Notes: generated from the letters alone by a model not told the origin. A stretch of DNA of 64,000 bases from a virus (IMGVR_UViG_3300027754_000035), one strand, 5' to 3'. Positions 12,459 through 43,971 are shown, counted from the first letter of the stretch. Translations and numbers: made by a program.

Positions 12459-12860
12459 ATGGCTACTCAAGCACTTGGACTAAAATTGCCGATACAATTG
12501 GGTCAAAATGGTTATTTTGACACCAATACGGCCACTGTTGCCCAAGTTGCGGACAACATCAAGAATTTACTACAAACAATTCCGGGTGAACGTCGATTCA
12601 ATAATGAGTTTGGGTCGAGCCTTTATAGTTTATTGTTTCAGCAAAACGTGGTTGAAGTAAATAAAGATATTATTGTTGATGCTGTGCAACGTGATATTGA
12701 TCGTTGGTTGAATGGTGTATTGGTCAATGATGTAAAAGTGAAACTAGCGGTAGATCAACCACAGAATAATAATGAGAATTCTATATTTATAAGTGTGGTG
12801 TTTACATATAACAGATCTGCGGCCACTGTTGATGTAACACTCAATACCAATCGAATCTAA
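12459..12860 (+). CDS. gp25: Baseplate wedge subunit, gp25-like
   Basis: DNIKNLLQTIPGERRFNNEFGSSL is the GPW/gp25 motif. Confidence 0.9.
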   Translation: MATQALGLKLPIQLGQNGYFDTNTATVAQVADNIKNLLQTIPGERRFNNEFGSSLYSLLFQQNVVEVNKDIIVDAVQRDIDRWLNGVLVNDVKVKLAVDQPQNNNENSIFISVVFTYNRSAATVDVTLNTNRI

Positions 12861-14851: not shown

Positions 14852-14852
14852 T

Positions 14853-16718
14853 ATGCATACGTTTATTTATCCATCTCAAGACACTTACCTCAACAACGCT
14901 TCTGCGTATAAAAACAAGAATTTTGGCATTGACGAAATTCTTGAAATCTATGCTTTGAATTATGGCAACAAGTTGGTGTATACCACGCCAAACTGGCACA
15001 CTCCGCCACAAAATAGCAGTTCATACGGCAATGAAGGTTGGTTGGCATACGACGGTAGTTGGTTGTACATATACTCTGGTAGCCAGTGGCGTAGTTTTCC
15101 AATTGATAATGGTGTTATTGGTGATGAATCCGCAATAGCCTACTTCACGGGAACAATATCAAACGTCACAACAAATCCTAAAAAGCCGTTGATGGTGTCT
15201 GGTTCTGCTGATCAGGCATATGGAAAGTTTAGCGGTAGCTATCAGTCTGTTGGAATAATTGATGTTAATGGAAAGTTAAGTACTGGCAGCTTCAATGGCA
15301 CCATAAAAACTGGGGCTACATTCTCCACACTAAAAGTAAATGGTCATACGTATACGACTTCACCTCTGACCAGTTCATTGGTTGGTAGCGGTAGCTTTCG
15401 TCAAGTAATTGGTAGATTATCAGCATCATCATGCACCGGAACAGGCCCGGCATGTGTAACCAATGGTACGTTTAGTGGAAGTTTTACAGCAAGCAATTTC
15501 AATGCGTATATATCCACACAAACATCTAGTCAACATTACTATGCCCATGTGACAAACTTCCAAGGTTATGTAATTGGTGAGTACACCGGATCATTTGCTC
15601 CGCCGGAAACTGCATATTTCTTGTTGAAACCTGAGTTTTCAAGAACAATGATTCAATTTGATACAACCAACATCAGTGAATCGATTGCCCGAAATCAATT
15701 ATCAAGTTCCAATATCAAATTCACACTGAATTTGACTGCGTGTGGTCAACGTAATCTGCCTCTGAACTATACTCTGTACGCATATCCTGTCAGCCAAAGC
15801 TGGAACAATGGCGATGGCCGCTGGGCAGATGGTGGTTCCTCTATGGGTGCGAGTTGGGACTTTAGAAATTATTCTGGTAGCGGTCAGTGGGTCAAGCCTA
15901 TGACTAGCAGCTATGAACAAGTGGACTATCTGCGTACTGCGTCGTATTCAAGTTCAGCATTCCAAAATGGTGGCGGAACTTGGTATTATTCTGTGCCTGG
16001 TGGTTATCAAAATAAAAAGCATTGGATTTGTAGCTCATCGTTCTTTAGACCGCTGCGGGGAACAAGTCTTATTTGTAGTCAGTCTTATACGCTTGGACAG
16101 CAGGGCGACATAACCATGGATGTTAGTAGAATTGTGCGTTCATGGTTGTGTGGATGCATACCAAATAACGGCATTATTCTAGCAACATCGTTAGAAATCA
16201 CAGTACCACCTGTTGATCAGACCAATGGGTTATTACAATATTTCAGTAAAGAGACCAACACAATTTACAGTCCATATATTGATGTTGCTTGGGATGACAC
16301 CAAGTTTGATAAGGGTAGTTTGGCACCAGTTACTGGTTCTGTAGAAAACCTTGTAACTCTACAACAACTCAAGGATGTATATAAAGCAGGCAGTTTACCA
16401 AAAGTATTTGTATTTGCTAGAGACAAATATCAACTTAAACAGTTTGCCAAGGCGTATCAACAACCATCCATGATCACGCCAAAATACTTACCAACATCTT
16501 CATATTTTATGATCAAAGATGCTGAGTCGGAGCAGGTTTTGATTGATTTCGATCGGTATTCAAAGTTGAGTTGTGATCCAAAGCAGGGAAATTATTTTAA
16601 GTTTGATACCACTGGATTGCCCCAAGAACGATATTTCAAGATATTTATAAAGGCAGAGTACCCAGATGGCACCGTTGACATAATCGACACAGCCAAGGTA
16701 TTCAAAATTATAAGATAA
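14853..16718 (+). CDS. Baseplate/tail structural protein (possible DNRLRE-like carbohydrate-binding fold)
   Basis: QDTYL...NFGIDEILEI...SRTMIQFD...LYAYPVSQSW...GASW pattern; Ser/Gly-rich insertion; position within the wedge operon. Confidence 0.5.
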   Translation: MHTFIYPSQDTYLNNASAYKNKNFGIDEILEIYALNYGNKLVYTTPNWHTPPQNSSSYGNEGWLAYDGSWLYIYSGSQWRSFPIDNGVIGDESAIAYFTGTISNVTTNPKKPLMVSGSADQAYGKFSGSYQSVGIIDVNGKLSTGSFNGTIKTGATFSTLKVNGHTYTTSPLTSSLVGSGSFRQVIGRLSASSCTGTGPACVTNGTFSGSFTASNFNAYISTQTSSQHYYAHVTNFQGYVIGEYTGSFAPPETAYFLLKPEFSRTMIQFDTTNISESIARNQLSSSNIKFTLNLTACGQRNLPLNYTLYAYPVSQSWNNGDGRWADGGSSMGASWDFRNYSGSGQWVKPMTSSYEQVDYLRTASYSSSAFQNGGGTWYYSVPGGYQNKKHWICSSSFFRPLRGTSLICSQSYTLGQQGDITMDVSRIVRSWLCGCIPNNGIILATSLEITVPPVDQTNGLLQYFSKETNTIYSPYIDVAWDDTKFDKGSLAPVTGSVENLVTLQQLKDVYKAGSLPKVFVFARDKYQLKQFAKAYQQPSMITPKYLPTSSYFMIKDAESEQVLIDFDRYSKLSCDPKQGNYFKFDTTGLPQERYFKIFIKAEYPDGTVDIIDTAKVFKIIR

Positions 16719-16719
16719 T

Positions 16720-17193
16720 ATGTCTGATATCGTGGTAGAATACAACGTAGGTCTACAGTCTCTACAGACCTTCAAAGATACTGGGGTATTTCCGAACAAT
16801 ATTGATTCGTTCGGAAACTTCCAACTCGTTTTTAACAACAACAAAACCACCGATGGTACGTATTATTATTCTAATATTGATCTAAAGACGTTGGAGTATA
16901 ATATTGATAAGATTGTTGATACCAATTCTACACAGTTTAACGAACTACAAACTCTAGAAACTGCGCCGACACAAGACATTGCCGTTGTATTGCAAAAATA
17001 CAATGAACAATTGGCTGAAAATCGCATTCTCAATGAGACGGTCAATAATTTGATTGAAAAGTATGAGAACAACGATGATAAACAAGTCATTGCGGCAATG
17101 AAAACTGAGATTATTGATCTGCGTATCAGTCTTGGTCAAGGAAAAGTACCATCTGACTTTAGCGATAACTTTCCATTTTTACCATTGATCTAA
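16720..17193 (+). CDS. Hypothetical baseplate-region protein
   Basis: Tightly packed ORF (1-nt gaps) between structural genes. Confidence 0.7.
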   Translation: MSDIVVEYNVGLQSLQTFKDTGVFPNNIDSFGNFQLVFNNNKTTDGTYYYSNIDLKTLEYNIDKIVDTNSTQFNELQTLETAPTQDIAVVLQKYNEQLAENRILNETVNNLIEKYENNDDKQVIAAMKTEIIDLRISLGQGKVPSDFSDNFPFLPLI

Positions 17194-17194
17194 T

Positions 17195-20100
17195 ATGCCA
17201 TATAGTTATCTAACATTTGACGACACCAGTTTGAACAGTGGTATTGCTAGCGGTTCATACTTTCCCCAAAACTTGCAGGAGCTTTACGAGCAAAAGTTCG
17301 TGAATAAGGAAAGATATTTCGGCACCGCTGATAGTGATTTAATTGAATTTAGTTTATATAATAGTGCCCAAGAAGTTGTTGCATTCAATCGTGTAGTACC
17401 AACCGTATCATATTCGGTAATTAGTGGTACATATTACGATATCAATAACAAGCTTTCCTATTATAACTTTGCCAAGCCATTTACCAACTTTGTAAAGTAC
17501 AACAACGAGTTGTTGCTCAATACACAGAACAACTTGAAGAAGGTTCAGATTTCGCCAGGGTTGTATTATGTACTCTACAATTTTGTTAGAAATGTTGCTG
17601 GTAACAACAAAAACAAATTAGTCATCAAGGAAATCAGTCCGAGCAGAACTGAACTAAGATTGTCGTTTGCGTTTAATCCAACACTATCAGCAAATGGTGC
17701 TTTGGATGCTACCAAGACATCAGCCTTTGCAGACAAGAAGTATCTGTTTCTTCAAATCTCCACGTTGGTAAATCAAGTTATCGATAACAATCCGATTTCT
17801 CAAAATTTTGTCAACAACACGGGCAATTTTAATTATGTAAAAATTGCACAAAATCTTGGACTGAAAAGTACTGCCGAGTTGCAAACGTTTATCAACGACA
17901 CTTACATTGGCTTTGATAAAATACAAAATTTATCGACGGTCGTTGATCAAACAATTCTGCAAACGTCCAAATTTATTGGTATTGATGACCAACTCAAGAA
18001 TTTCACATACACATACAACTCAACTGAATTCAGCGAGGCAGATATTTTATTGGCATTCAAGACGATTGTGACTAAAGTGTCTCAAGATCGCATTTTGCAA
18101 AAAACCAGCATCAATTCTGTTCAACTGCAAAATATTTTGGATCTGTTTGTCAAGGTGATTTACACCGATTGGTTGTTGCCACAGATGACGATGTTGTTGG
18201 ATGACTACGCCAATAGATTCTTTGGTTTGTACAAAAATGCTTTGAATTTTGATAGCGGTGAGTTGATCAAGATTTTGACGCACACCAGTTATCTGAATCC
18301 TGCTGACGGTCGCACAAATGTTCAGATCAAGCTGGATGCACCACTGCCTTTGAACTTTGATGTTCAGACCACATGTTGGATATCCAACATCTCAATTGCA
18401 CCAGTATATTTCAAGACCAACTTGTTTGTTGATCCAATCAGCCGCAAAGTGTATTTGAATGGTGTTAATTTTGATGTTGTGGTTGATACCGCAAATCCAA
18501 CCAACGACAAATTTGCAAATCATACTGTTGATACATTAACAAGTGCCAAGGCAAATCTTCAACAAAAAATCAATGATCTTTTGATTGACTACGATGCATT
18601 TAACAATTTTATCGTATACAGTTCTGCCGAGTTACGAACCAAGATTGCCAAAAACAAAATTCTTGAGTATAACAAGAAGGAAAATCAGAAGAATGCTATA
18701 GCAGCTAGGGCTGACTCTGCAAACTCTACCATCAGTGCATCATATTCATTGGAAAAACAATCCTTGGTGCAGGATCAAATAAACCTTCTGACATCGTTTG
18801 ATGAGTATGAGTCGTACTTGTTTTTTAATACATCAAGTATCGATGATAAAATTGCGGATGGTGTTGCGTATGATAAAGATAATCTGGACAGCTTGATTAA
18901 TCAACTTCCTGCGTATATCCAAGAGGACGGTAACTCAGCCGATTATCTGAAATTTACGTCGATGGTTGGACATTTCTTTGATAACATCTTGGTGTATATA
19001 AAGAAGTTTCCGAAGACATATCCATTGGGGGTTTCGGAACTGAGTGATTATCCAAAAAATTTCTTGGACGAGTTGCTCAATTCGTTTAGTTGGAACACCA
19101 ACAATTTCAAGCTACAAAACAGTGATCTTACCCAGTATTTGTTTAATCAGTCACAAGCAAGCGGATCTTTGTCGAGTTCATATTTTGACTACGGTAAAAC
19201 ATTACTGAATCGATTCGCCAACAACCTACCATACATCTACAAGACCAAGGGTACGGCAACATCATTGGAGTTGTTGACATCATTGTTTGGTATTCCATCA
19301 GAGTTGATCCAGATTCGTGAATATGGTAGCACCGATGTTAATGTAAACCGTGTCAATTATTTTGACTACGATGATGTTTTGTATCTAACCAAGCTAGATT
19401 CAAACAAGTATCTAACGTTTAACTACACTGGTAGTGAGTACAAGTATGTGGTGAATAGCCCATATACTATTACAAATCCAAGTTTGACCACACCGGATAC
19501 AATTATTTCACTCACATCATCCCGTGGTGAAGTGGAAGAATTCTCTGGCTTCAATACATTTGAAGGAACGTTTAGATTCAAGAGCAACAACTACTACGCC
19601 GATCAAAAGATTCCCGTTGTGAAGAAAGTTCGCAATGGTAAAATTGATTGGTTTGTTTATATCAAAAAAACAAAACAAACTGACTCTGGAATATTGGTAT
19701 TTGACTTTCACCCAGACACAGGATTGGCTTCCACAAATTTCACATCAAGTCTCAAAACAGACGAGTTGCCATTTTTGAATGGAAATATGTTTACGTTCAT
19801 GGTGACCCGTGACTTTTTGCCTGGTGCTACTTATGACACTTTGCCAAATGTTGTGAATGCAACAGCACCAATTACTTATACCATTGGTGCTACAACTTAC
19901 ACAGCTATAACTTCATCGTACACATCTTCAAATTCGGCAAAGTTTGCTCCGCTAAACTACACGTTGAGTGTAAATCAGTATGAAGGTTCACTATTAAACT
20001 TTCACAGTGAGCGCACTCGCACACTGACGTTTGCACAAAATCAGTATTTCTCATCTGGCAGCTATTATATTGGTAACTACAATAGCAATGTTGAGTTTCG

Positions 20101-21706
20101 TGGTAACATCGACAAAATCAAAGTTTTTACTGATACTCTATCGACCGATGATTTCGGTGAACATAGCTATAACGTCGATAGTATTTCTACGCCTGATAAG
20201 AACACTGTATACAGAAATCTGTTGTACTTCTGGAGCTTTGATACTCCTATAGATTTGTGGTCGCACACATCATCCATCGACTATAAGTGGGTACCTAACC
20301 AAAATGTTTATTACCAATTGTCTGGTAGTCCGCACACAAACGCATTCAAGGCATATAATTTTACTGGAGAATTGGTGACACAGCCATACCCATCATGTAT
20401 ACCAGCAATACAATCAAAGTTTCCATATCAATTTGATAGAATTGTTATTAAACAGGCCATCAACGCAAACAATTTTGGGCCCAACTATAAGAACAACGTC
20501 AAGATCAACAAGATCAAAGAGTTTGCAACATCCAACTTGGTGCCTTATGATTATAGCACCAAGACGAATGACATTGTTGGTAGTGATAGTAACGTAGTAG
20601 GGTTCTATATTAGCCCATACACATATCTTGAAAATAAGATTGAGAAATTCCTTGGTAAAGATGGTATCACTGATGTTATTGGTGATCCAAAATATCTGAC
20701 CAGTCAAAACTATCCAGAGCTAAAGCAATTGCAATTGGATTTTTCATTGACCAATCAAAAGTATATCTACCCACAAGAATTTTACAGCACCTACAAGTTC
20801 TACATTGACTTCTCAATCTTTGATTATTTACAAAATGTTGTTCCAAACCGTGCGTCTTTGAAACGTGGGTTGTTGATTGAACCGTCGTTGTTGGAACGTA
20901 AGAAGTTCAACTATAAAGATCTAACTTATACAGTTCCAACATTCACAACCTCAAGTTTTTCTCTGAGTAATATCGCATCATTTAGTGCAAGCTATACCAC
21001 GGGCGGCTTGATGAGCATTGCCGTTGGATCGGAACCTGTGTATAGTGGGGATCATAATACATACAATTTCTCAAGGTTTGAGATTCCGGACATCATTGAT
21101 AACCGAGACTTCATGTTTGCTAAGTATGGTAAGTATATATTTACCGATGTGAATGGTTTCAACATTCGAGACACACACAACATACCCGATCATGAATACT
21201 ATCAAGCTGTCAACAACAATGGTAAAGTAGTTGGATTCACATCAAGTTTTGATAGAGTGGAAGTTATTGGATCAGGATCAATTACTGGGTCTGGTGCTTT
21301 TACCAACAGATATTACGGTTTACAAAATAGCGGTTATTCACAACGCCACTTAAGCAAAATTAATATGCCTGGGTCTCGCTATCGCTATCAAGCAGTTAGT
21401 GGTAGCAATTACATTATACTCAATGGTGTAAAAACTTTGGCACCAGCAAAAACTAGATTCTATACTTATATTAAGGGTAAGAATGATTATACTACGACTG
21501 TAAATCGTAACGGTTTACCAAACGGTTCACAACCAGTGATCACCATTCCCGGATTCTTGAGTTTCAATATCAGCAGCAGCACATTCCCAACAAACGGCAC
21601 AACAACTGGGTCAATTGATAGCCCAAATAGTCTGTTTGTTCAAGTACCACTGACAGCATCAGTACAAAATAGTGCCAGCCTGAATATGTATATCATGAAT
21701 TTATAG
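17195..21706 (+). CDS. Large baseplate wedge protein (gp7-like)
   Basis: 1503 aa; YLKFTSMVGHFFDNI and LPYIYKTKGTATSLELLTSLFGIP..IREYG match the wedge (gp7/P2 gpI-like) motif; a LamG-like beta stretch follows. Confidence 0.6.
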   Translation: MPYSYLTFDDTSLNSGIASGSYFPQNLQELYEQKFVNKERYFGTADSDLIEFSLYNSAQEVVAFNRVVPTVSYSVISGTYYDINNKLSYYNFAKPFTNFVKYNNELLLNTQNNLKKVQISPGLYYVLYNFVRNVAGNNKNKLVIKEISPSRTELRLSFAFNPTLSANGALDATKTSAFADKKYLFLQISTLVNQVIDNNPISQNFVNNTGNFNYVKIAQNLGLKSTAELQTFINDTYIGFDKIQNLSTVVDQTILQTSKFIGIDDQLKNFTYTYNSTEFSEADILLAFKTIVTKVSQDRILQKTSINSVQLQNILDLFVKVIYTDWLLPQMTMLLDDYANRFFGLYKNALNFDSGELIKILTHTSYLNPADGRTNVQIKLDAPLPLNFDVQTTCWISNISIAPVYFKTNLFVDPISRKVYLNGVNFDVVVDTANPTNDKFANHTVDTLTSAKANLQQKINDLLIDYDAFNNFIVYSSAELRTKIAKNKILEYNKKENQKNAIAARADSANSTISASYSLEKQSLVQDQINLLTSFDEYESYLFFNTSSIDDKIADGVAYDKDNLDSLINQLPAYIQEDGNSADYLKFTSMVGHFFDNILVYIKKFPKTYPLGVSELSDYPKNFLDELLNSFSWNTNNFKLQNSDLTQYLFNQSQASGSLSSSYFDYGKTLLNRFANNLPYIYKTKGTATSLELLTSLFGIPSELIQIREYGSTDVNVNRVNYFDYDDVLYLTKLDSNKYLTFNYTGSEYKYVVNSPYTITNPSLTTPDTIISLTSSRGEVEEFSGFNTFEGTFRFKSNNYYADQKIPVVKKVRNGKIDWFVYIKKTKQTDSGILVFDFHPDTGLASTNFTSSLKTDELPFLNGNMFTFMVTRDFLPGATYDTLPNVVNATAPITYTIGATTYTAITSSYTSSNSAKFAPLNYTLSVNQYEGSLLNFHSERTRTLTFAQNQYFSSGSYYIGNYNSNVEFRGNIDKIKVFTDTLSTDDFGEHSYNVDSISTPDKNTVYRNLLYFWSFDTPIDLWSHTSSIDYKWVPNQNVYYQLSGSPHTNAFKAYNFTGELVTQPYPSCIPAIQSKFPYQFDRIVIKQAINANNFGPNYKNNVKINKIKEFATSNLVPYDYSTKTNDIVGSDSNVVGFYISPYTYLENKIEKFLGKDGITDVIGDPKYLTSQNYPELKQLQLDFSLTNQKYIYPQEFYSTYKFYIDFSIFDYLQNVVPNRASLKRGLLIEPSLLERKKFNYKDLTYTVPTFTTSSFSLSNIASFSASYTTGGLMSIAVGSEPVYSGDHNTYNFSRFEIPDIIDNRDFMFAKYGKYIFTDVNGFNIRDTHNIPDHEYYQAVNNNGKVVGFTSSFDRVEVIGSGSITGSGAFTNRYYGLQNSGYSQRHLSKINMPGSRYRYQAVSGSNYIILNGVKTLAPAKTRFYTYIKGKNDYTTTVNRNGLPNGSQPVITIPGFLSFNISSSTFPTNGTTTGSIDSPNSLFVQVPLTASVQNSASLNMYIMNL

Positions 21707-21752
21707 TATCTATTTTGGAAAAAAACCGAATTCATTTGATAATTATTTGTAT

Positions 21753-22394
21753 ATGGCATACTTAGACAACAACGTAATTACGATTAACGCCGTTTTGACA
21801 AAAAAGGGTCGTGAAATCCTAGCAAAAGCTGGAGGTTTGAATATCACAGCATTCGCACTGGCGGACGATGAGATCGACTACACACAATTTAACCCAACAC
21901 ATCCATTGGGTAGTGCGTATTATGATATTGCCATCCGTAACACTCCGGTTATGGAACCAATCACCGACGAGACCCAATTGATGAAATATAAGTTGGTGAC
22001 TCTCAATGAGGGCGTGACCGCAGTTCCAACGATCAGCGTTGCACAAACCGTCATTACGGTCTCTCGTGATTATACAGGAGAAATCTCAATCAGTCCAAGT
22101 ACCAACCCAACATACAATGTTACGTTGGGATATACAGCAATTCTATCCAACAAGAATGTGGGTACGTTGATTGTCACCGAAACCAACAGTTTGAATTCTA
22201 CAACGGCAACGGTTCCCTCATTTGCTGGCGATTTAACATCACAAACTTCTCAGGCTGTTGTTGGTAATAAGTTTAGATTTGTTCCAAATGCATCTTTGGC
22301 AAAAACAACAACAACCAACATCACTGTCATTGGTAATGAAAGTGGTGGCAACACAGCAATTACAGTGACGGTTACCGTTCCATCATCAAACTAA
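21753..22394 (+). CDS. Baseplate/tail structural protein
   Basis: MAYLDNN.ITINAVLTKKGREILA...ITAFALADDEIDY resembles wedge/fibre-attachment N-termini; Ig-like beta C-terminus. Confidence 0.6.
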   Translation: MAYLDNNVITINAVLTKKGREILAKAGGLNITAFALADDEIDYTQFNPTHPLGSAYYDIAIRNTPVMEPITDETQLMKYKLVTLNEGVTAVPTISVAQTVITVSRDYTGEISISPSTNPTYNVTLGYTAILSNKNVGTLIVTETNSLNSTTATVPSFAGDLTSQTSQAVVGNKFRFVPNASLAKTTTTNITVIGNESGGNTAITVTVTVPSSN

Positions 22395-22402
22395 ACTAGA
22401 CT

Positions 22403-23509
22403 ATGATTTTTAGCCAATTTACAGCAGACGACATTGTAGTGGGAAGAATAAACCAAGTATCATCGGGTCTATTCGGATCTGGAAGTTTGTATTTGAGCCA
22501 ATCTGCGTTCACCACATCTTCAGCCCAAGCCAATACGATGATTGGTGCAAACCAATTTGACGTGCGCAATGGTCAATATTATACCAACGTATATGCCGGT
22601 GGAGATCTCTACTTTTCTATTGCTTATGGTGATTATGCAAATACTGGTAGCTCAAAGTATGACAGTACTGCGGTCACTGCGGCAAGTAGGGTTTTGACCA
22701 ACGAAACCAAGGTAATTTATTCTCAATACAGAAATACTCTGTTGCAACCCGGCGACAACTTTTTCTCGTTTGCATCTGGTAGCGTGTCTACACCACAAGA
22801 CAGCCAAGCAATTTTTGTGATGAATTTTGCATCTGACAAGATCAAGGACCAAATTGATCCAGGTCAAATACAAATCAATTTCTTGGGAACTAAAGGTCAA
22901 TATTCTTTTATTGACGATTCATCGGTTGTAAATAAGCAACAAAGTGTGTATAATCTGATCTCTGGATCTGTTGTCAGTGGTGTACCAACACCATACACTA
23001 ATAATGGTGCATTCGCCGCAAAATATGAGGGTATTGGTTTATTTTATCCAACAAACGGTGTAGTTGTTTTCAATGCTTTGAATTTACAAGCCCGTGTTGG
23101 TATTAACGCTGCTATTGCAGATCGTGCGGGTAATTCAAATAATGGATCAATTACATTCCAAAGTTTCTGGCGTGTTTGGACCCACGATTTATTTTTAAGA
23201 CTTAAACAAAGCACAAAGCCAATGGCTGTGCGTAAGAGTGAATTTGTTCCCAGCACCAATTATTTCGTGCGTGTCAAGAACAAACAGTTCAATTATAGTA
23301 ATAATCCAACATTTGTGTCGGATGGTACCGATGGTAAGACTAAAGGTACCATTGTTTATCAAGATTTGATCAATAACCCACGAACATACATCACTGGGGT
23401 TGGTTTGTATGATACAAACAATGAATTGATTGCTATTGGTAAAGTCAGTAGACCAGTTCAAAAGAGCTTTGATTCTGAACTTTTGTTGAAAGTCAGAATT
23501 GATTTCTAA
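22403..23509 (+). CDS. Baseplate/fibre-attachment protein
   Basis: C-terminal TYITGVGLYDTNNELIAIGKVSRP resembles the fibre-collar motif and is shared with the protein at 32085-34505. Confidence 0.6.
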   Translation: MIFSQFTADDIVVGRINQVSSGLFGSGSLYLSQSAFTTSSAQANTMIGANQFDVRNGQYYTNVYAGGDLYFSIAYGDYANTGSSKYDSTAVTAASRVLTNETKVIYSQYRNTLLQPGDNFFSFASGSVSTPQDSQAIFVMNFASDKIKDQIDPGQIQINFLGTKGQYSFIDDSSVVNKQQSVYNLISGSVVSGVPTPYTNNGAFAAKYEGIGLFYPTNGVVVFNALNLQARVGINAAIADRAGNSNNGSITFQSFWRVWTHDLFLRLKQSTKPMAVRKSEFVPSTNYFVRVKNKQFNYSNNPTFVSDGTDGKTKGTIVYQDLINNPRTYITGVGLYDTNNELIAIGKVSRPVQKSFDSELLLKVRIDF

Positions 23510-23532: not shown

Positions 23533-25143
23533 ATGATCAAATTTTTTAGAAATCAGGACATTATTGTCACTGCGTTTACGATTGCCAAGCAACAAACACT
23601 CAATAGTGTTGTAAATGACTTGATTCTCGCAAACGATGGCGACGATCTATTTCCATTGGTTGCCCCAATTCTTGGTTGCAACGATAATGTTTCTGGTAGC
23701 TGTGAATCCAACGGTGTAGATGGGTATTTGGCACTAACTCAATACGGCGACCCAATTGATTTTCAAATCGGAAAATACGTACCATCTAGTTCAGTTTTTT
23801 ATCCAAGTGGTAGTACCAATTTTAATGTTCAAAACAATCCGTTGAACTTGGATGGTACTTATCAACGCCAAGTTTATAATACAGCCAAAAAGATGTATTA
23901 TAACAACTACAACAATGCCTACAATATTTTTGGATTTGATGGATATGATACCAGCAAAGCATCATTGGATCTGACCAATGAATTTTCCGCAGTTAATTTA
24001 CGCATCAATCAAACGGGCGATACCATCCGCCCAAATACATTGGTGATCAACAACCAGACAGGCGATATTGTTGCAGATATAATTGATGACGGTAATTATA
24101 ACTTAAAACTATCCGGATCATTTTTTATCGATAAATACGAGCTTGATCCAAGCTCATTGGATTTGACCCGACCAACTGGACTATGTGGTTTGGGTGGATA
24201 TTTGGTGAATAGTGCATCGTGTGGCCCATGTGTGAGTCCAACGCCAACACCAACACCAAGTTTAACACCCACACCAAGTTTAACACCCACACCAAGTTTA
24301 ACAGCAACGCCAAGCTTAACACCTACGCCCACTCCAACTCCAAGCTTGACCGCAACTCCAAGCTTGACCGCAACTCCAAGCTTGACCGCAACTCCAAGCT
24401 TGACTGCAACACCTAGTGTGACTGCAACTAGAACAGCAACTCCAAGCTTGACTGCAACACCTAGTGTGACTGCAACTAGAACAGCAACTCCAAGCTTAAC
24501 AGCAACTCCAAGCTTAACAGCAACACCTAGTGTGACTGCAAGTCCAGCAGCAAGTCCAGCAGCAAGTCCAGCAGCAAGTCCAGCAGCAAGTCCAGCAGCA
24601 AGTCCAGCAGCAAGTCCAGCAGCAAGCTTGACACCTACTCCAAGCTTGACACCTACTCCAACACCCACAGCAAGTCCAGCAGCTGCGGCGTTCTTCTACA
24701 TCGAATTGGAAGCAGCTGGTAGTTGTTCATATGAACCCGGCAGTGATCCACAAACTTTTTGTGACGCATCTGTGGCTGTTGATACCACGGTTAATAACTA
24801 TTCGGTGGGTGCGGCCGTAATGCAAGTGGTAAGCAGTGGCATAGCAATACCATGCACGGTCTCCGGCGCCGGCAACTCGGTAATTACTGCTACACTTAAA
24901 TATACGACTGGATTTGTATCAGTGTCCGATTCCGGAACCGCGTACACATATACAATACATAATTCTGTTACTGGTGGTGATCCATCGGTTTGTGGTATTC
25001 AAGATTTTGGTCCGAACAACATATCATATGATACTTTGATTAATAAAATAACCTATGCCGAAACCTACCCTGGCTTAATGCCAGATGGAATAACGGCTCG
25101 GGATGGTAGTAGCGCGCGACCATACTTAACTTCGCTGATATAA
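23533..25143 (+). CDS. Virion protein with mucin-like Pro/Thr/Ser/Ala linker between two Cys-containing domains
   Basis: The N-terminal domain resembles baseplate-region proteins; an internal stretch of about 152 aa uses only S, T, P, A, L, V and R. Confidence 0.75.
24235..24690 (+). repeat. Nested tandem repeats encoding [16 protein letters not shown] and SPAA
   Basis: 18-nt unit actccaagcttgaccgca x3 identical (24337-24390); 48-nt unit x2 (24391-24486); 12-nt unit agtccagcagca x7 perfect (24541-24624). Confidence 0.95.
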
Positions 25144-25211
25144 ATTGAGTAATATAAAAATAATGATGGGGGTGGTGGTGTATATGTAAATTAGAACACA
25201 TTAACACTGTT

Positions 25212-27824
25212 ATGCCCAAAATATTTATTCAAATTGCTAGTTATAGAGATCGTGAATTAATTCCAACGATCAAAAATTGCATAGAAAATGCAAAATACCC
25301 AGAAAATTTAGTGTTTGCATTGGGTTGGCAGCATGACGAAACAGAGACTCTGGGTGAATATGCTACAGATCCACGATTCAAAATTATAGATATTCCCTAC
25401 CAAGAGAGTCAGGGTGTTTGTTGGGTCCGACACCAATTGAATTTGTTGTATTCCGATGAAGAATATTGTTTGCAGTTGGATAGTCACCATCGGTTTGCCA
25501 AAAATTGGGATGAGCAGGCCATTGGAATGTTACAAGATCTACAAGCCGCTGGATATGCTAAACCTCTTTTGACTGCATATATTCCATCATATGAACCAGC
25601 CAATGATCCTGTTGGTAGAGGTACTGAGCCTTGGATGATAGGTTTTGATCGGTATTTACCCGAGGGACCAATATTTCCATCACCATCGGTTATACCCAAC
25701 CATAAAAATCTGACTTTGCCAATCCCGGCAAGATTTTTCTCGGGTCATTTTGCATTTGCACATGGATCTTTTGTGAAGGAAGTTGTATATGACCCAAATC
25801 TTTATTTTCACGGCGAAGAAATCAACATGTCGGTTCGTGCGTATACCCACGGATACGATTTGTTTCATCCACACAAGGTCATAGCATGGCATTATTATCA
25901 CCGAAATGGTGCTGTAAAGCAGTGGGACGATGACAAGATTTGGGGCGAAAGAAACACATCATCACATTTGCGCACCAGAAAACTGTTTGGTATGGATGGT
26001 GAAACCCAAAATATTGATTTTGGTATTTATGGTTTTGGTACAACCAGAACTCTTACCGATTACGAAAACTATGCGGGTGTTAGATTTAGAGATCGTGCCG
26101 TGCAACAATACACATTGGATAGAAATATTGCGCCGAATCCTATTATTACAGATGCGGCTGAGTATGCAGCGTCGTGGTTGCACATTTTCAAGTTCTGTAT
26201 TGATATGCACGTTGATAGTGTTCCAGACAACGATTATGATGCGTGGATCATTGCTTTCAAAAATGTGGATGGTGTAGAAATTGTTCGCTGCGATGCCGAT
26301 GAAAATGAAGTTAATTCTTTTAAGGCATCAAATCCATCGGATAAGTGGTATAGAATTTGGCGAACATTTCACACAAAGGAGGTACCACACACTTATGTGT
26401 TCTGGCCTCACAGCAAATCAAAGGGATGGATGGAAAAAATTGAACGGATTATTCCCGGACCAACAAAATTGATTCCTCGTTCACCAGATCCTGTGAGTTT
26501 GTGGAAAGGTAAAGGTTCCGAAAAAAAGGATCAACCTAAAAAGGTGGTGTTCAATAAAAATCCAAACAAACGCAAAATATTTGTACACATACCAGCATAC
26601 AGAGATCCCGAATTGTTGCCCACAATTGAAAGTGCATTAAAAAATGCAGCTCATCCAGACCGATTGGTTTTTGGTATATGTCATCAATCCAACAAGAGTG
26701 ATAAGTTTGTCACCGACATTGATAAGTTCAGATCTGATCCTAGATTTAGAATTATTGATATGGACTATACAGATGCAAAGGGTCTTCCGTTTGCTAGATA
26801 TCAAGTCAATACAATGTTGCTTAATGAGGAGTATATTTTGCAATTGGATAGCCATCACAGATTCAATGTTGGTTGGGATTCTACACTGATTGAAATGCAC
26901 GATGGTCTCAAAGCTGCTGGTGTCAAAAAACCACTTTTAGGTGGATATCTACCGTTCTACGATCCCGCAAATGATCCTGCGTTGCGAACCAATGAACCAT
27001 GGCAATCAGTGGCATCGTGTTTTTATCCACACGGAACCTTGTTCATAAGACCAGCGGGCTTTAGAAACTTGGTTGATCTTAAAGAACCAGTACCGGCAAG
27101 ATTTTTATCGGGGCATTTTTGTTTCGGCGACAATCATTGGGCTACCACAATTAAGCACGACTCAGATATATTCTTTAGTGGCGAAGAAATCAATCTTACG
27201 GTCAGATCATATACACATGGTTATGACATCTACCATCCACACAAAGTTGTTATTTGGCATTCAATGGCTAGAAAAGAACGTGATGGTATACTTGTGTGGG
27301 ATGATCAAGCCAAACGTGGTGAAAATTGGTCGGACTCTCAAAACAAATCCCGAGCAAAAATCAGACAGTTGCTTCAGACCGAATACAATGGTTATGATTT
27401 GACTGGATACAATCTTGGTAAAGACCGAACGCTGCATGATTATGAGTTGTATGCTGGTATTTGCTTCAAGGAAAAGTCAATGCAGCAATATACGATGGAT
27501 AATCATCTACCACCAAATCCACCGATGTCTGAACAAAAATGGAAAGATTCACTGAAGAAGTCTTTTTATTATCTAGTTACCATTACGAGACAACAACTGC
27601 CCGGTGACGATTATAGTAGTATTTTGGTGGCATTTGATGATGATCAGGGCAAGGCCGTGGCCAGTAAATACATTACCGGCAAACAATTGAGCGACTTCGT
27701 GCAAAATAAGACTAATATTCACTATGAAGAATATTTTTCGGCTGATAGATGGCCAAGTAAAGTTGTGTATTGGGGTCTAAGCACATCAAGGGGTTGGGCA
27801 GAACGAGTAGAAATAAAACTATGA
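25212..27824 (+). CDS. Tandem-duplicated GT60-like (Pfam GlcNAc / polypeptide alpha-GlcNAc transferase-like) glycosyltransferase
   Basis: Two copies of IF(I/V)xIx(S/A)YRDxEL..TI...A..P..L, QLDSHHRF (DxH metal motif), PARFxSGHF, GEEIN..VR.YTHGYD..HP. The second copy starts near 26571, and each copy carries a similar ~80-aa C-terminal domain. Confidence 0.8.
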   Translation: MPKIFIQIASYRDRELIPTIKNCIENAKYPENLVFALGWQHDETETLGEYATDPRFKIIDIPYQESQGVCWVRHQLNLLYSDEEYCLQLDSHHRFAKNWDEQAIGMLQDLQAAGYAKPLLTAYIPSYEPANDPVGRGTEPWMIGFDRYLPEGPIFPSPSVIPNHKNLTLPIPARFFSGHFAFAHGSFVKEVVYDPNLYFHGEEINMSVRAYTHGYDLFHPHKVIAWHYYHRNGAVKQWDDDKIWGERNTSSHLRTRKLFGMDGETQNIDFGIYGFGTTRTLTDYENYAGVRFRDRAVQQYTLDRNIAPNPIITDAAEYAASWLHIFKFCIDMHVDSVPDNDYDAWIIAFKNVDGVEIVRCDADENEVNSFKASNPSDKWYRIWRTFHTKEVPHTYVFWPHSKSKGWMEKIERIIPGPTKLIPRSPDPVSLWKGKGSEKKDQPKKVVFNKNPNKRKIFVHIPAYRDPELLPTIESALKNAAHPDRLVFGICHQSNKSDKFVTDIDKFRSDPRFRIIDMDYTDAKGLPFARYQVNTMLLNEEYILQLDSHHRFNVGWDSTLIEMHDGLKAAGVKKPLLGGYLPFYDPANDPALRTNEPWQSVASCFYPHGTLFIRPAGFRNLVDLKEPVPARFLSGHFCFGDNHWATTIKHDSDIFFSGEEINLTVRSYTHGYDIYHPHKVVIWHSMARKERDGILVWDDQAKRGENWSDSQNKSRAKIRQLLQTEYNGYDLTGYNLGKDRTLHDYELYAGICFKEKSMQQYTMDNHLPPNPPMSEQKWKDSLKKSFYYLVTITRQQLPGDDYSSILVAFDDDQGKAVASKYITGKQLSDFVQNKTNIHYEEYFSADRWPSKVVYWGLSTSRGWAERVEIKL

Positions 27825-28648
27825 ATGTTGATATTAGCAACATACGTTTTGTTTACTTTACAAACGAGACCAATATTCCATTGTTAAAATTGACATTGCC
27901 GAATTTTTTCAAATATAATGATTTGGAGAATATAAAAGTCAGTGTTATATCCAATAATTATGCGGATGACATTTTACCTTATAGTAATGCGGTTCAATAT
28001 TTGAATGGTAGTACACCATTTCATACAAACGGAAAGCATTTTAGTAATTCTTTGAAAAATACTCTATCTAAAATACAAGAAGAGTATATTTTTTTATTGC
28101 TTGACGATTTCTTTTTCATAAATGACACCAAATTTAACGATTTGCAAAAATTAATGGAATTTATAGTTGCTGAGAATGTTGATTATTTTGGATTTGATGA
28201 TGTGGCGGGAACTGAAATATACGATTGGTCTCCGTATGAAAAGGAAAATTACCCATTTGGAAAAGGGTCTCTTTATTATAGAGACAACAATTATAGATAT
28301 TTACACAGTTTGCAACCAACAATTTGGAAGCGAAAATCACTAATGGCATTGTGTGACAGATGGGAGTTTAGTGTAAATGAGTTGGATGAAACTCTACCAC
28401 AAATTAAGCAAGAAAATAAGTTGAAGTGTTTTGGTAACAATCAACTATCACATTTTACATACACATCGCCGGGCGATTACTTTGTTATAGCTTACGTGGA
28501 AATAATACGCCATGGTGTATTACAACACTACAAAAATGGATTCGCAGGCACAGATTATCCTGTATTTAGTTTTATTGACCAATTGATTAATGAGCATGAT
28601 TTGTTGAATAAATCCGAGTATCAAAAAATATTACACAACATCACATGA
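27821..28648 (+). CDS. GT-A fold glycosyltransferase (GT2-like)
   Basis: YIFLLLDDFFF (DxD-like) and SLQPTIWKRKSL; ATGA overlap with the previous stop; start moved from 27770. Confidence 0.6.
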   Translation: MNVDISNIRFVYFTNETNIPLLKLTLPNFFKYNDLENIKVSVISNNYADDILPYSNAVQYLNGSTPFHTNGKHFSNSLKNTLSKIQEEYIFLLLDDFFFINDTKFNDLQKLMEFIVAENVDYFGFDDVAGTEIYDWSPYEKENYPFGKGSLYYRDNNYRYLHSLQPTIWKRKSLMALCDRWEFSVNELDETLPQIKQENKLKCFGNNQLSHFTYTSPGDYFVIAYVEIIRHGVLQHYKNGFAGTDYPVFSFIDQLINEHDLLNKSEYQKILHNIT

Positions 28649-29607
28649 ATTTAGACATCGTATATGAATTTGGAGGAACGGAGTGGGTGTACAAATCTGT
28701 ATTTGAAAAATACTCAAAATATTGTGTTGAAAATCTTAAAGATATTGATGTTCAAATCAAAAATAGCAGACGTTACGATCCAACGTGTGGTACCAACAAT
28801 AAGTATGGGCCATTTTACATGATGGTTGTTAACCGAGATACTAAAAAGTATATTTTAATCTCGTATTGGGATAAACTGGTAGATGTTGTTAGACATAATA
28901 ACGTTACAAATTTTGATTTGGAAAATTGTGTGGAAATAATAACGAGTGCTGGAACGCACGAAAATGATTTTTGTTACACACCAATAAATTTTGACTACAC
29001 ACCGTTTAGTTATATTGGCAATATAATTACAAATGAAACTGAAATTGATCGATTGTATAACTCATGTGTAGAAAAAACTCATGAAGACCGCCTAAAATTC
29101 AGAGGATACTTATATGGGTTCCGAGATTTTTTAAGTAACGATACTAGATTTGATATAATTGACTGTCGAGGTCCAAACCAATACAGACACAATAACGATT
29201 ATGTCAGAGAACTATCCAAATCAACAATCAATTTAAGTCTAAATGGTGCCGCCGAAATTTGTTATCGAGATATGGAAATATTAGGTTTGGGAAATGCGTT
29301 GTTTAGATTTGAGTTATCAACCAAGTTTCACAATCCACTTATTCCCAATCACCATTATATATCCGTACCACACAGCGACATAAAATATAATCCCGGCGAC
29401 GTATTTGAATATTACAAAAAATTGAGTGATAGATTGTTTGATAGATTTGAACAAGTAAAAAATCAACACGACTTTATAAAGTTTGTGTCAGATAATGGTA
29501 GGCGTTGGTATATAGAAAATGGCACTGTGGACGCAAACGTGAAGCTGCTGACGCAATTAGTAGATTTTACCAAATTAAAAGAAATCTATCAACTCAATCC
29601 GCCATAA
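28645..29607 (+). CDS. Putative glycosyltransferase (GT-B/CgeB-like C-terminal part)
   Basis: FRG..YGFR...YVRELSKSTINLSLNGAAEICYRDMEILGLG..L pattern; ATGA-coupled. Confidence 0.5.
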   Translation: MNLDIVYEFGGTEWVYKSVFEKYSKYCVENLKDIDVQIKNSRRYDPTCGTNNKYGPFYMMVVNRDTKKYILISYWDKLVDVVRHNNVTNFDLENCVEIITSAGTHENDFCYTPINFDYTPFSYIGNIITNETEIDRLYNSCVEKTHEDRLKFRGYLYGFRDFLSNDTRFDIIDCRGPNQYRHNNDYVRELSKSTINLSLNGAAEICYRDMEILGLGNALFRFELSTKFHNPLIPNHHYISVPHSDIKYNPGDVFEYYKKLSDRLFDRFEQVKNQHDFIKFVSDNGRRWYIENGTVDANVKLLTQLVDFTKLKEIYQLNPP

Positions 29608-29637
29608 CTATAATAGTTGTTCACAAATTAAAAATGT

Positions 29638-32043
29638 ATGAGTTATAATAATCCTATTACGAATGTTGCTTCCGATACTTTACACTATATAGGCAAAAAC
29701 TACAGTGATACGTTTGTCGTCCAAATTGGGGCGATGGATGGTATTAACTTCGACGATACCCGTGGTTTTTTAGATATGTACAAGTGGGACGCATTGTTGG
29801 TCGAACCGATTCCAGCAATCATGGACGAATTGCGAAAAAATTTCGCACTCATAACAAATTACAGATACGAACAATCAGCAATAACTGAATCGGATGGTGA
29901 AACTGTGATGTTGACTATTCCTACCGATGTTATTGAACGGGAAGGTTTACATCCCGGATATAAAGGTATGAGTGCGCTGTACCCTTTGAAAAATGGATTT
30001 GGTAGCGACTATCAGCGGGATATCGATGTTAAATCTAACTTTGGTGTGGATGTAAAAGTCAATACGTTGACATTGAAATCTTTATTCAATAAGCACCAAG
30101 TACAAAAGGTAGATGTATTTATTTGTGATGCTGAGGGGTATGATTGGAAGATATTCCAACAGTTCGATTTCAGCGTATTTCGTCCAAAATTTATTAGATT
30201 GGAGTATATCAACCTTTCAGACGATGAGAAGAAATTGGCGGCTGAGAAGTTTGAACAAAATGGGTATCTGGTTGAAATTGGTCAAAATATTGATTGTGTT
30301 GACAAGGAAATTTGGAGTAAAATTAAAAATGTGGATTCTTCTACTACGACTTCCATATCCGATTTGACTGTGGTCACGGGGTTGTGGAATATCAACCGAG
30401 TTGGTAGACCATTTGATCACTATATCGAAAATCTAAACAAATTGTTAGATATTGATGCGAATTTGTTTTTGTATCTACCAAAAGAATTGGAACCTTTGGT
30501 GTGGAAAAAGAGAACCAAACAGAATACTGTTGTCAAAATCTATGAATTGAACGATATTCAAAACATGTACAAACCATTCTGGGATAAAACTCAAAAATTG
30601 AGAACCGATCCAGCATGGATTAATAAGGCCGGATGGCTTGCAGCTTCACCTCAGGCTTCACAAGAATGGTACAATCCAATTGTGCAATCCAAGATGTTTT
30701 TGTTGAATGACGTTACCATTTGGAATCCTTTTAATACCAAACACTTTATGTGGTTGGATGCTGGTATCACCAACAGTGTATACGAAAAATACTTCACAGA
30801 CAACCGAGCACTGGATAAGATTGCGCCATATCTAGAACAATTCTTGTTCTTAAGCTATCCATATGAAGCCAACTCGGAGATCCACGGATTTGATTTTGAT
30901 GCTATCAATAGATACAGTGGTAAGAAGGTAACTTACGTTTGTAGAGGTGGATTGTTTGGTGGTACCAGAGATTCTATCAATCAAGCAAATGCAACCTACT
31001 ATTCTCTTTTAGATAGAACGTTGAGCGACGGATACATGGGTACAGAAGAAAGTGTATTTACCATCATGTCATATTTGGAACCCGAGAAGTATAGACGCTA
31101 CTCTCTGGATTCAAATGGTTTGATTGTGAAGTTTGCACAAGCACTACTGGACAATAAAGTTGAGCTTGAGCCTGTTCCCAAAGACACAAACACATACACT
31201 CCCAGAAAGTTTGTTAATCCCGACAAGTTGAAGTTGTCGGTGTATATGTTGACATTTAATTTTCCACATCAACTTGAACACACCATACAAACATGGTTAC
31301 AACATCCTAAGTGGATCACCAATACTAAAAACATTCTTATTGATAATTCCACAAATGAGGATGCTAGAATTGCCAATGCTAAACTCTGCAAAAAGTACAA
31401 CTTTGAGCACATCATTAATAACAAAAATGATGGTATCAATGGTGGTAGATTAAAAGCAGCACAACACTTTCAAGAATCCGACAGTGATTATTATGTGTTT
31501 TTGGAAGATGACATGGGTTTACATCCGCCGGGTCACAATTTTTGTCGCAACGGATTCAGAACTTATGTTCCCGATTTATACGATAAAGTGTTAAAAATAA
31601 TCGGCGGTGATGTGGATGTAGACTTTTTGAAATTCTCGTATACCGAGGTGTATATGGACAACAATATTCAAGTTTCTTGGTATAACGTACCCAAGGTGGT
31701 GCGAGCGGAGGTTTGGCCAAATTATACCAAATTGCCTGTGTCTGGTCTTGATCCTAACTGCCCACGCACCAAGTTTGATACCATAGAGGTTGTGGATGGA
31801 TTGAGTTATATCAAAGGTGACGTGTATTATGCAAACTGGCCAATGATTGTGGGTAAAAGTGGCAATAAAAAGATGTTTTTGGACACTACATGGGCATATC
31901 CATATGAACAAACTTGGATGAGTCACATGTTCCAAGAAACAAAAAAAGGTAACTTGAAACCGGCTGTTCTACTAGCAAGTCCTATCCACCATAACAGAAT
32001 TGCTTATTATAAGCCAGAAGAAAGAAAAGAAAATGCGGGGTAA
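29638..32043 (+). CDS. Tri-domain protein: FkbM-type SAM methyltransferase + HtrL/YibB(WlaTC)-like glycosyltransferase + GT-A domain
   Basis: VVQIGAMDG...LLVEP...ICDAEGYDW (FkbM); LTVVTGLWNI...SKMFLL...WLDAGI...GGLFGG...GTEE (HtrL/YibB); ILIDNS...YVFLEDDM (GT-A). Confidence 0.7.
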   Translation: MSYNNPITNVASDTLHYIGKNYSDTFVVQIGAMDGINFDDTRGFLDMYKWDALLVEPIPAIMDELRKNFALITNYRYEQSAITESDGETVMLTIPTDVIEREGLHPGYKGMSALYPLKNGFGSDYQRDIDVKSNFGVDVKVNTLTLKSLFNKHQVQKVDVFICDAEGYDWKIFQQFDFSVFRPKFIRLEYINLSDDEKKLAAEKFEQNGYLVEIGQNIDCVDKEIWSKIKNVDSSTTTSISDLTVVTGLWNINRVGRPFDHYIENLNKLLDIDANLFLYLPKELEPLVWKKRTKQNTVVKIYELNDIQNMYKPFWDKTQKLRTDPAWINKAGWLAASPQASQEWYNPIVQSKMFLLNDVTIWNPFNTKHFMWLDAGITNSVYEKYFTDNRALDKIAPYLEQFLFLSYPYEANSEIHGFDFDAINRYSGKKVTYVCRGGLFGGTRDSINQANATYYSLLDRTLSDGYMGTEESVFTIMSYLEPEKYRRYSLDSNGLIVKFAQALLDNKVELEPVPKDTNTYTPRKFVNPDKLKLSVYMLTFNFPHQLEHTIQTWLQHPKWITNTKNILIDNSTNEDARIANAKLCKKYNFEHIINNKNDGINGGRLKAAQHFQESDSDYYVFLEDDMGLHPPGHNFCRNGFRTYVPDLYDKVLKIIGGDVDVDFLKFSYTEVYMDNNIQVSWYNVPKVVRAEVWPNYTKLPVSGLDPNCPRTKFDTIEVVDGLSYIKGDVYYANWPMIVGKSGNKKMFLDTTWAYPYEQTWMSHMFQETKKGNLKPAVLLASPIHHNRIAYYKPEERKENAG

Positions 32044-32071
32044 TTCTATCATACAAAACCAATTGATCGTA

Positions 32072-43914: not shown

Positions 43915-43971
43915 CTTTTATATTTTTGAAGTGTATGTTAATATGTATCTATTAGATAAGGAGTATTGTAT

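Follow-up and report, generated by a model that had tools for sequence, protein, structure and literature searches.

Why would a large phage carry four predicted sugar-enzyme genes directly behind the gene for a fiber-like protein whose middle is a Thr/Ser/Pro/Ala repeat? The question is raised by a locus in the viral record IMGVR_UViG_3300027754_000035. The window analyzed here is a stretch of 64,000 nucleotides, bases 4511-68510 of this 99-kb IMG/VR record, which is estimated to be ~35% complete. Given the size of the record at that completeness, the source is a jumbo phage. The window holds the myovirus genes for a baseplate wedge protein, tail sheath, terminase, and portal, and among cultured phages its closest relatives are Flavobacterium phage vB_FspM_immuto and Microcystis phage Mel-JY01 (37-40% identity in the wedge protein, ~41% in an open reading frame (ORF) of 215 amino acids (aa)). 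The locus consists of P0001, a fiber-slot gene with a Pro/Thr/Ser-rich (PTS) linker, and a cassette of four genes, P0002 to P0005, of which P0002 is a tandem transferase of glycosyltransferase (GT) family GT60. These ORFs have the coordinates given in an original prediction made from this DNA, as an ORF check established. The arrangement is probably best explained by cytoplasmic mucin-type O-glycosylation of the phage's own fiber linker by the co-encoded enzymes.

The candidate acceptor, P0001, comprises an N-terminal domain (N-domain), the PTS linker, and a C-terminal domain (C-domain) (Table 1). The linker spans 156-161 aa, close to the ~152 aa originally predicted, with a composition of T42 P36 A32 S25 L14 per 161 residues. 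Proline, threonine, and serine account for 64% of it (Thr+Ser 42%, Pro 22%), its DNA is built from tandem repeats of 12, 18, 48, and 66 bp, and P0001 is the sole PTS-rich ORF of the 99-kb record. In most relatives, the N-domain is a stand-alone protein of ~232 aa, with the gene for an FG-GAP-repeat protein starting 2-68 bp later. The N-domain is 44-97% conserved across the family, in contrast to the C-domains, which are unrelated. That of P0001 is shared only with P0129 and P0133 (33-36% identity), and other members carry unrelated Cys-rich or repeat C-domains. A conserved N-domain joined to unrelated C-termini is the usual architecture of fibers and receptor-binding proteins. The gene lies in a baseplate-distal slot, five genes past the wedge, in a block that every relative keeps. 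Immuto and Mel-JY01 carry genes annotated by their depositors as tail fiber and tail spike in the slot that follows their homologues of the 215- and 368-aa ORFs. From this gene order, the depositor annotations in relatives, and the conserved-N/swapped-C architecture, we infer that P0001 is a virion protein. Searches of Pfam, PHROG, NCBIfam, and phages by tblastn gave no match of P0001 to a fiber or baseplate family, an Atlas search with a stand-alone N-domain homologue returned zero matches, and the AlphaFold2 (AF2) model from a 16-sequence alignment had a predicted local distance difference test (pLDDT) score of 35 and was unusable.

Members of the N-domain family all begin with MIKFF(R/K)NQDI or MLKFF(R/K)K (23533-23560 in the window, and homologues). 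In two relatives with N-domains 93-97% identical (L055:10001-11086 and L056:10001-10936), the PTS arrays differ from 24226-24708 by entire repeats and lack the SPAA block, so linker length changes quickly. A 190-aa antisense ORF (24096-24668, minus strand) lies wholly inside the repeat region and is most likely not a gene. Antisense ORFs of this kind recur in relatives only as a by-product of the repeats, which are free of stops in several frames.

The gene directly behind P0001 encodes the candidate initiator. P0002 matches PF11397 (GlcNAc/GT60) at 412.7 bits against a cutoff of 21 (E 2e-123), and its two modules score 199 and 150 bits in a six-frame search. The Asp, Ser, His, His, and other catalytic-core residues are invariant in 37 sequences, both halves of P0002 included, and the DxH motif is kept in both. 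The AF2 model of module 1 (37 homologues) has a pLDDT of 91.7. Its best structural match in Swiss-Prot is Dictyostelium Gnt1 (Q8T1C6; E 2.8e-23, template-modeling (TM) score 0.62, 23% identity, residues 3-319), the Skp1-hydroxyproline GlcNAc-transferase of GT60. The remaining top Swiss-Prot structural matches are polypeptide GalNAc-transferases (ppGalNAc-Ts), as are all of the top 50 matches in a PDB structure search (E about 1e-10, TM score about 0.5). Residues ~320-413 of module 1 form an extra ~95-aa C-terminal alpha/beta domain outside the Gnt1 match. The Pfam matches of both modules, the invariant DxH, and the structure of module 1 with Gnt1 on top thus bear out the GT60 assignment of the original prediction. 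In protists, GT60 enzymes start mucin-type O-glycans on Ser/Thr-rich domains and do so without the ricin domain of GT27 (PMC8724618, PMC3188802). The tandem form also occurs in L006-L009 and L026, and single-module GT60 proteins of ~415 aa are common in metagenomes: at least 7,124 have E <= 1e-5 (8,000 candidates scored), on contigs of up to 390 kb, and the PF11397 family comprises more than 7,000 metagenomic clusters at 90% identity.

If P0002 acts on the linker, the two should occur together. The N-domain family was collected by protein and DNA searches, which gave 79 loci whose gene contexts were read. Wherever a PTS linker is present with enough downstream DNA, a GT60 gene, single or tandem, stands before the FG-GAP gene (13/13 loci); seven further PTS-positive contigs end too early for GT60 to be scored. 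The window and the truncated loci L006 and L007 show the same arrangement in addition to the 13. GT60 is found at 0/54 PTS-less loci, including five with non-PTS extensions (L061, L021, L022, L115, and L118), and the number of discordant loci is zero. Linkage of the two genes in relatives, on which the original prediction had staked itself beforehand, is thus what these loci display. After dereplication at 95%, 8 loci (plus the window) have both linker and GT60 versus 25 with neither. On the N-domain tree, each trait changes four times, and all three well-supported independent contrasts (3-4 overall) are concordant: P0126 and P0127, which lack both linker and GT, are sister to the window clade, and L008, which has both, is nested among N-domain-only proteins.

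The block that carries both traits can be delimited against the closest relative without a PTS linker, G006 (89% complete at 303 kb, with ~74% nucleotide identity to the window). Homology between the window and G006 in blastn ends at 24147 and restarts at 32071, and G006 carries 572 bp in place of the intervening linker, C-domain, and whole cassette. Genome-wide, G006 has no PF11397 protein, no cassette enzyme, and no PTS ORF. The GT60 and P0005 homologues of L008 are 80-81% identical to those of the window, versus 50% for its N-domain and 44% for its FG-GAP protein. Because the cassette is far more similar than these flanking proteins, the module must have moved between backbones.

The association extends beyond this locus. 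To count as PTS-rich, an ORF had to be 150 aa or longer and contain a PTS run no shorter than 40 aa, a minimum set at 30 aa in later scans. These ORF-level composition scans replaced an exact pattern of 11 protein letters that was too insensitive, with 0 matches in G001, a record with four PTS ORFs. The GT60-positive records G000, G001, G002, G003, G004, and XacN1 (~1.0 Mb) contain 1, 4, 6, 5, 5, and 15 PTS-rich ORFs, respectively (36 in total), and the eight GT60-negative records (G006-G010, immuto, Mel-JY01, and LR756508; ~1.62 Mb) contain 0 each. Together with the absence of the cassette from fiber genes with non-PTS extensions, these counts argue for a putative functional tie over mere linkage. 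Two of these records, G002 (89316-92489, minus strand) and G003, also hold a 1058-aa ORF with a pure (SPP)n run of more than 200 aa plus more PTS tracts; in G002, five PTS-rich ORFs, this one included, lie side by side at 77-92 kb.

The remaining cassette genes are more variable. Both predicted ATGA overlaps, at 27821-27824 and 28645-28648, are present. Because the former overlap includes the P0002 stop, the start of P0003 is placed at ATG 27821 (275 aa) and not at TTG 27770. P0003 has no match in Pfam, PHROG, NCBIfam, or PDB; in Atlas, it matches viral clusters only, plus a 0.93 lead to GT2, and a homologue lies within the GT60 cassette of L016. The Atlas model of P0004 resembles the Glyco_trans_1_2, GT47, and RXYLT1_C clusters (TM scores of 0.62-0.67), and its homologues occur in the cassettes of L016, L019, and L110. 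In P0005, the expected FkbM methyltransferase is followed by an HtrL_YibB domain and a borderline GT2 match (20.9-23.7 bits versus a cutoff of 23.3) that also shows weak GtrB-like similarity (phrog_22739, E 0.0017). Five of the about six GT domains originally counted are therefore supported, namely the two GT60 modules, P0004, HtrL_YibB, and the borderline GT2; the sixth, P0003, has no family match. No cassette protein has a transmembrane segment (maximum 19-residue Kyte-Doolittle score 0.65-0.86). An HtrL+GT2 homologue adjoins a single GT60 in 10/10 distant viral loci (L010-L019). GT60 is the only enzyme present in every cassette, and its partners vary among FkbM or other methyltransferases, GT25-like, GT11, and HtrL-GT2 proteins. 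A constant GT60 with variable accessory enzymes fits a presumed initiator with variable elongation and capping. L025 (11786-13672, 628 aa) and L009 (9100-9936, 278 aa) have an extra unannotated ORF without a Pfam match between the PTS fiber gene and GT60. An FkbM-like homologue lies within 10 kb in some PTS-less, GT60-less relatives (L074, L075, L087, L094, L095, and L121); FkbM is thus not exclusive to the cassette.

Biochemical information comes from the cultured phage XacN1, whose ORF334 is a single-module GT60 homologue with 39.5% identity. Purified XacN1 virions give at least two Schiff-stained glycoprotein bands (PMC5852040, Suppl. Fig. S4), and the authors suggested that the two GTs of the phage, ORF328 and ORF334, make the virion glycoproteins; the bands were not assigned to proteins, and no tie to GT60 or PT-rich proteins was drawn (PMC5852040). 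The XacN1 GT island adjoins the giant ORF325, which has PT linkers, two genes past the baseplate wedge gene ORF323. By analogy, these glycoproteins hint at a role of GT60 in virion glycosylation. Elsewhere in XacN1 (AP018399.1, 124051-133110, minus strand), six paralogous ORFs in a row (~400-750 aa) contain a PTS tract of 80-180 aa each, and the giant ORF384, which encodes 2823 aa and bears a glycerophosphodiester phosphodiesterase annotation, contains one of 407 aa.

These observations allow us to propose a mechanism in which a jumbo myophage would O-glycosylate its own baseplate-distal, fiber-like protein by means of a self-contained, horizontally mobile module. The acceptor would be the linker of ~156 Thr/Ser/Pro/Ala repeat residues that joins the N-terminal anchoring domain to the variable tip. 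The soluble tandem GT60-like enzyme would act in the host cytoplasm, before virion assembly, and move the first sugar from a uridine diphosphate (UDP) sugar onto linker Thr/Ser hydroxyls. By family analogy, this sugar would be an alpha-linked N-acetylhexosamine (HexNAc), probably N-acetylglucosamine (GlcNAc). Lineage-variable enzymes, here P0004, P0003, the HtrL-like and GT2-like domains, and the FkbM methyltransferase, would then extend and cap the chains. The outcome would be a stiff, extended, protease-resistant "bottle-brush" stalk bearing the tip domain. In mucins and cellulase linkers, glycosylation stiffens and extends the chain and protects it from proteases, and by this analogy, the benefit to the phage likely lies in stalk stiffening and extension together with protease protection. 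We infer the transfer itself, the donor sugar, the linkage, the modified residues, the roles of the accessory enzymes and the sequence in which they act, and what the phage gains, be it shielding or adhesion.

Several observations weigh against linker O-glycosylation. That P0001 or other PTS proteins in this lineage carry glycans is a prediction from genes, and the virion status of P0001 derives from gene order and depositor annotations, with no family match and a failed fold prediction. The closest characterized enzyme, Gnt1, uses a hydroxyproline of one specific protein, not mucin Thr/Ser. The 3-4 independent contrasts are too few for significance (sign test p 0.25). The genome set is small, author-chosen, and partly related, G002 and G003 being near-duplicates and G007-G010 related to one another. 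At 7/10 distant GT60 loci, there is no PTS ORF within 10 kb, and distant GT60-positive phages often have more than 20 kb between GT60 and their PTS genes, as in G002. Finally, the adjacency of linker and cassette lets one recombination event move both, and the concordance at the locus could partly reflect linkage.

This last point also favors a different role for the cassette, as a moron that remodels host surface glycans such as lipopolysaccharide (LPS), capsule, or O-antigen, for example in superinfection exclusion. The cassette would then be a hot-spot neighbor of the fiber tip and the PTS segment an unmodified flexible linker; with linker and cassette in one contiguous swap block, linkage alone could give the concordance. 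HtrL/YibB and GT2 proteins are typically encoded in loci for LPS and polysaccharides, and Iyer et al. interpreted the polymorphic GT clusters that jumbo cyanophages carry as systems for modifying capsule or O-antigen (PMC7824862). However, the characterized relatives of the initiator are polypeptide transferases by both sequence and fold, and the cassette contains neither transmembrane segments nor flippase, polymerase, or Gtr-type genes (no Wzx/Wzy and no membrane GtrA/GtrB/GtrC). Fiber proteins with non-PTS extensions never carry the cassette, PTS ORFs track GT60 genome-wide even where the two are not adjacent, and XacN1 virions contain glycoproteins. Remodeling of host glycans is accordingly an unlikely explanation. 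Slightly less likely still is that the structural proteins of the phage are glycosylated but that the main acceptor is the C-domain, the FG-GAP protein, or another virion protein rather than the linker. Known phage systems modify capsid and tail-tube proteins at their C-termini, the C-domain always accompanies the linker, and the distance between GT60 and PTS genes in some GT60-positive genomes would suit such an acceptor. Yet the C-domains are wholly different among cassette-bearing relatives, which leaves the PTS linker as the only common feature, and the FG-GAP protein is unchanged in all cassette-less relatives. In addition, mucin-type initiators of GT27 and GT60 favor Thr/Ser in Pro-rich contexts (PMC8724618).

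The hydroxyproline specificity of Gnt1, the best structural match, raises the option that the linker, with its 22% proline, is glycosylated via hydroxyproline, as in the Skp1/Gnt1 pathway and plant hydroxyproline-rich glycoproteins (HRGPs). We give this option little chance. It would need a prolyl 4-hydroxylase, and no 2-oxoglutarate-Fe(II) oxygenase (PF13640) was found in the cassette or in the 99-kb record, which is ~35% complete; Thr and Ser in the linker exceed Pro, and other characterized GT60 enzymes act on Thr/Ser (PMC8724618). DNA is also a common substrate of phage GTs (Pyle et al. 2024; Markine-Goriaynoff 2004; both as cited in PMC12619734), and the transferases could hypermodify phage DNA with glycosylated hydroxymethyl-pyrimidines against restriction. 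This is highly improbable, given that the enzyme resembles only protein transferases in family and fold, that the cassette sits in a fiber slot and covaries with a protein feature, and that the 99-kb record, at ~35% completeness, shows no thymidylate-synthase-like hydroxymethylase (PF00303). All four alternatives are less well supported than O-glycosylation of the linker.

The features of the locus are collected in Table 1. Upstream, the order of the backbone ORFs 5' of P0001 is identical in all relatives. Downstream, the FG-GAP gene is found in all relative loci and directly follows the N-domain gene wherever the cassette is absent. Tail genes had been predicted to resume at 32085; synteny is consistent with this, but the 806-aa ORF located there has no tail family match. 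It is followed in order by RuvC, primase, and Mre11-Rad50 genes and then by the sheath gene at 39872. Among the neighboring genes, PHROG, Pfam, and NCBIfam matched only the wedge protein, FG-GAP, and DNA-metabolism genes. A megablast of the region against the phage collection gave zero matches, and no usable match came from PDB sequence searches with P0002, P0003, P0005, the FG-GAP protein, the wedge, and the 1503-aa ORF. Promoter and terminator signals were not above shuffled expectation, and the scan is hence uninformative on co-transcription.

Table 1. Features of the P0001-P0005 locus and its flanks (window coordinates).
Feature	Position	Strand	Description
Upstream baseplate backbone	12860..23509	+	Wedge, then five conserved ORFs of 621, 157, 1503, 215, 368 aa
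Baseplate wedge protein	12860-14851	+	phrog_219 E 1.6e-16
P0001, 536 aa, fiber-slot gene	23533-25143	+	N-domain + PTS linker + variable C-domain
P0001 conserved N-domain, residues 1-232	23533..24228	+	14 protein homologues, 70 loci; 38 invariant alignment columns
Replaceable block, 7.9 kb	24148..32070	+	Linker + C-domain + whole cassette; missing from closest PTS-less relative G006
P0001 PTS linker, residues ~232-392	24226..24708	+	TPS(L/V)TA, TPTP, SPAA tandem repeats; proposed O-glycan acceptor
P0001 variable C-domain, residues ~393-536 (~145 aa)	24709..25143	+	Presumed distal/binding tip
P0002, tandem PF11397/GT60 transferase	25212-27824	+	Two modules; phrog_24687 (409 positions) matched twice
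GT60-like module 1, residues 1-413	25212..26450	+	GT-A catalytic domain, D90-S-H92, PF11397, phrog_24687
GT60-like module 2, residues ~456-870	26577..27824	+	D546-S-H548; 38% identical to module 1
P0003, 275 aa, possibly GT-A (LLLDD motif)	27821..28648	+	ATGA-coupled on both sides
P0004, 320 aa, GT-B-like glycosyltransferase	28645..29607	+	Atlas model
P0005, 801 aa, fusion	29638..32043	+	FkbM methyltransferase 29-194, HtrL_YibB 242-483, GT2-like 534-626 (Pfam, NCBIfam)
FG-GAP-repeat, dockerin-like protein, 806 aa	32085..34505	+	PF14312 (FG-GAP_2) E 1.9e-25

Three further genes lie downstream of these features. The Mre11-Rad50 gene (36515-39703) encodes a single-chain fusion of 1062 aa, with phrog_100 (SbcD/Mre11-like) matched at residues 14-321 and phrog_77 (SbcC/Rad50) at 247-1061, and the fusion is kept in relatives at 1061-1088 aa. 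The tail sheath (39872-43864) is 1330 aa long and matches sheath families at residues ~990-1329 only, leaving an N-terminal extension of ~1000 residues. Directly after the sheath gene is a 503-aa HNH/homing-endonuclease-like ORF (43966-45477; phrog_3339, E 1e-109).

A broader reading can be offered tentatively, as one that we hold at slightly less than even. GT60 enzymes may be the initiators of a widespread, unrecognized mucin-type O-glycosylation in aquatic and soil jumbo phages, in which linkers and variable-extension cassettes would move as modules and yield a diversifiable virion glycan coat. Mucin-type initiation would then not be specific to eukaryotes, and the phage enzymes would be siblings or sources of GT60 and GT27. 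To our knowledge, PF11397 has been characterized so far only in protists, and phage virion self-glycosylation has been documented only in mycobacteriophages, with hints in XacN1; we know of no enzymology or acceptor rules elsewhere. If the reading is true, a very abundant and uncharacterized phage gene family, PF11397, gains a function, and many Pro/Thr-rich "linkers" of large phage structural proteins become predicted glycosylation sites. Fiber glycans would be a new variable in host range, virion stability, adhesion to mucus or particles, and evasion of antibodies and defenses. Soluble mucin-type initiators suited to the bacterial cytoplasm would become available for glyco-engineering, and the origin of GT60 and GT27 would become testable. 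With the presence/absence series and a cultured phage, XacN1, the hypothesis is directly testable.

The original prediction knew of no description of the pairing of acceptor and initiator in phages. In the literature on GT60/PF11397 in phages, PT-rich glycosylated fibers, and mucin-like phage proteins, we found nothing on a GT60-PTS pairing, and to this extent the statement stands; virion glycosylation as such has precedents in mycobacteriophages and XacN1. What is new here is a natural presence/absence series of linker and GT60 at a single locus.

Among known systems, the closest enzymatic parallel is with protist GT60, that is, Gnt1 and the Golgi pp-alphaGlcNAcTs of Dictyostelium and Trypanosoma cruzi. 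Like the phage enzyme, these are PF11397 proteins of GT-A fold with a DxH motif and no ricin-type lectin domain. The acceptors of the Golgi enzymes are Thr/Ser-rich mucin domains, which resemble the phage linker, and Gnt1 is soluble and cytoplasmic, as the phage enzyme would be. P0002, whose activity is predicted, differs from Gnt1 in sequence (about 23% identity), in its extra ~95-aa domain, in its tandem fusion, and in the candidate acceptor gene that adjoins it. Metazoan GT27 ppGalNAc-Ts provide the closest solved structures, share the DxH motif, and densely modify Pro/Thr/Ser tandem repeats. However, they are anchored in the Golgi membrane as type-II proteins and carry a ricin lectin domain, whereas the phage enzyme is soluble, lacks that domain, and is 11-18% identical.

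Self-encoded glycosylation of virion proteins is also known among viruses. Chloroviruses and giant viruses likewise glycosylate structural proteins (capsid and fibril) in the cytoplasm with their own enzymes (as cited in PMC5852040; PMC9614988). They differ in being eukaryotic viruses with atypical N-linked or other glycans and other GT families. Mycobacteriophages use GTs of their own to O-glycosylate their virion proteins in the cytoplasm (Freeman et al. 2023, summarized in PMC12619734). In contrast, the acceptor proposed here is a long internal, mucin-like fiber linker that is co-mobilized with its initiator. In mycobacteriophages, capsid and tail-tube subunits reportedly serve as acceptors through C-terminal extensions, and the enzymes are not known to belong to GT60. 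XacN1 belongs to another lineage with another host and has no tandem GT60, but it resembles the present phage in its GT60 homologue, its 15 PTS-rich ORFs, its GT island beside a PT-containing ORF near the wedge, and its virion glycoproteins.

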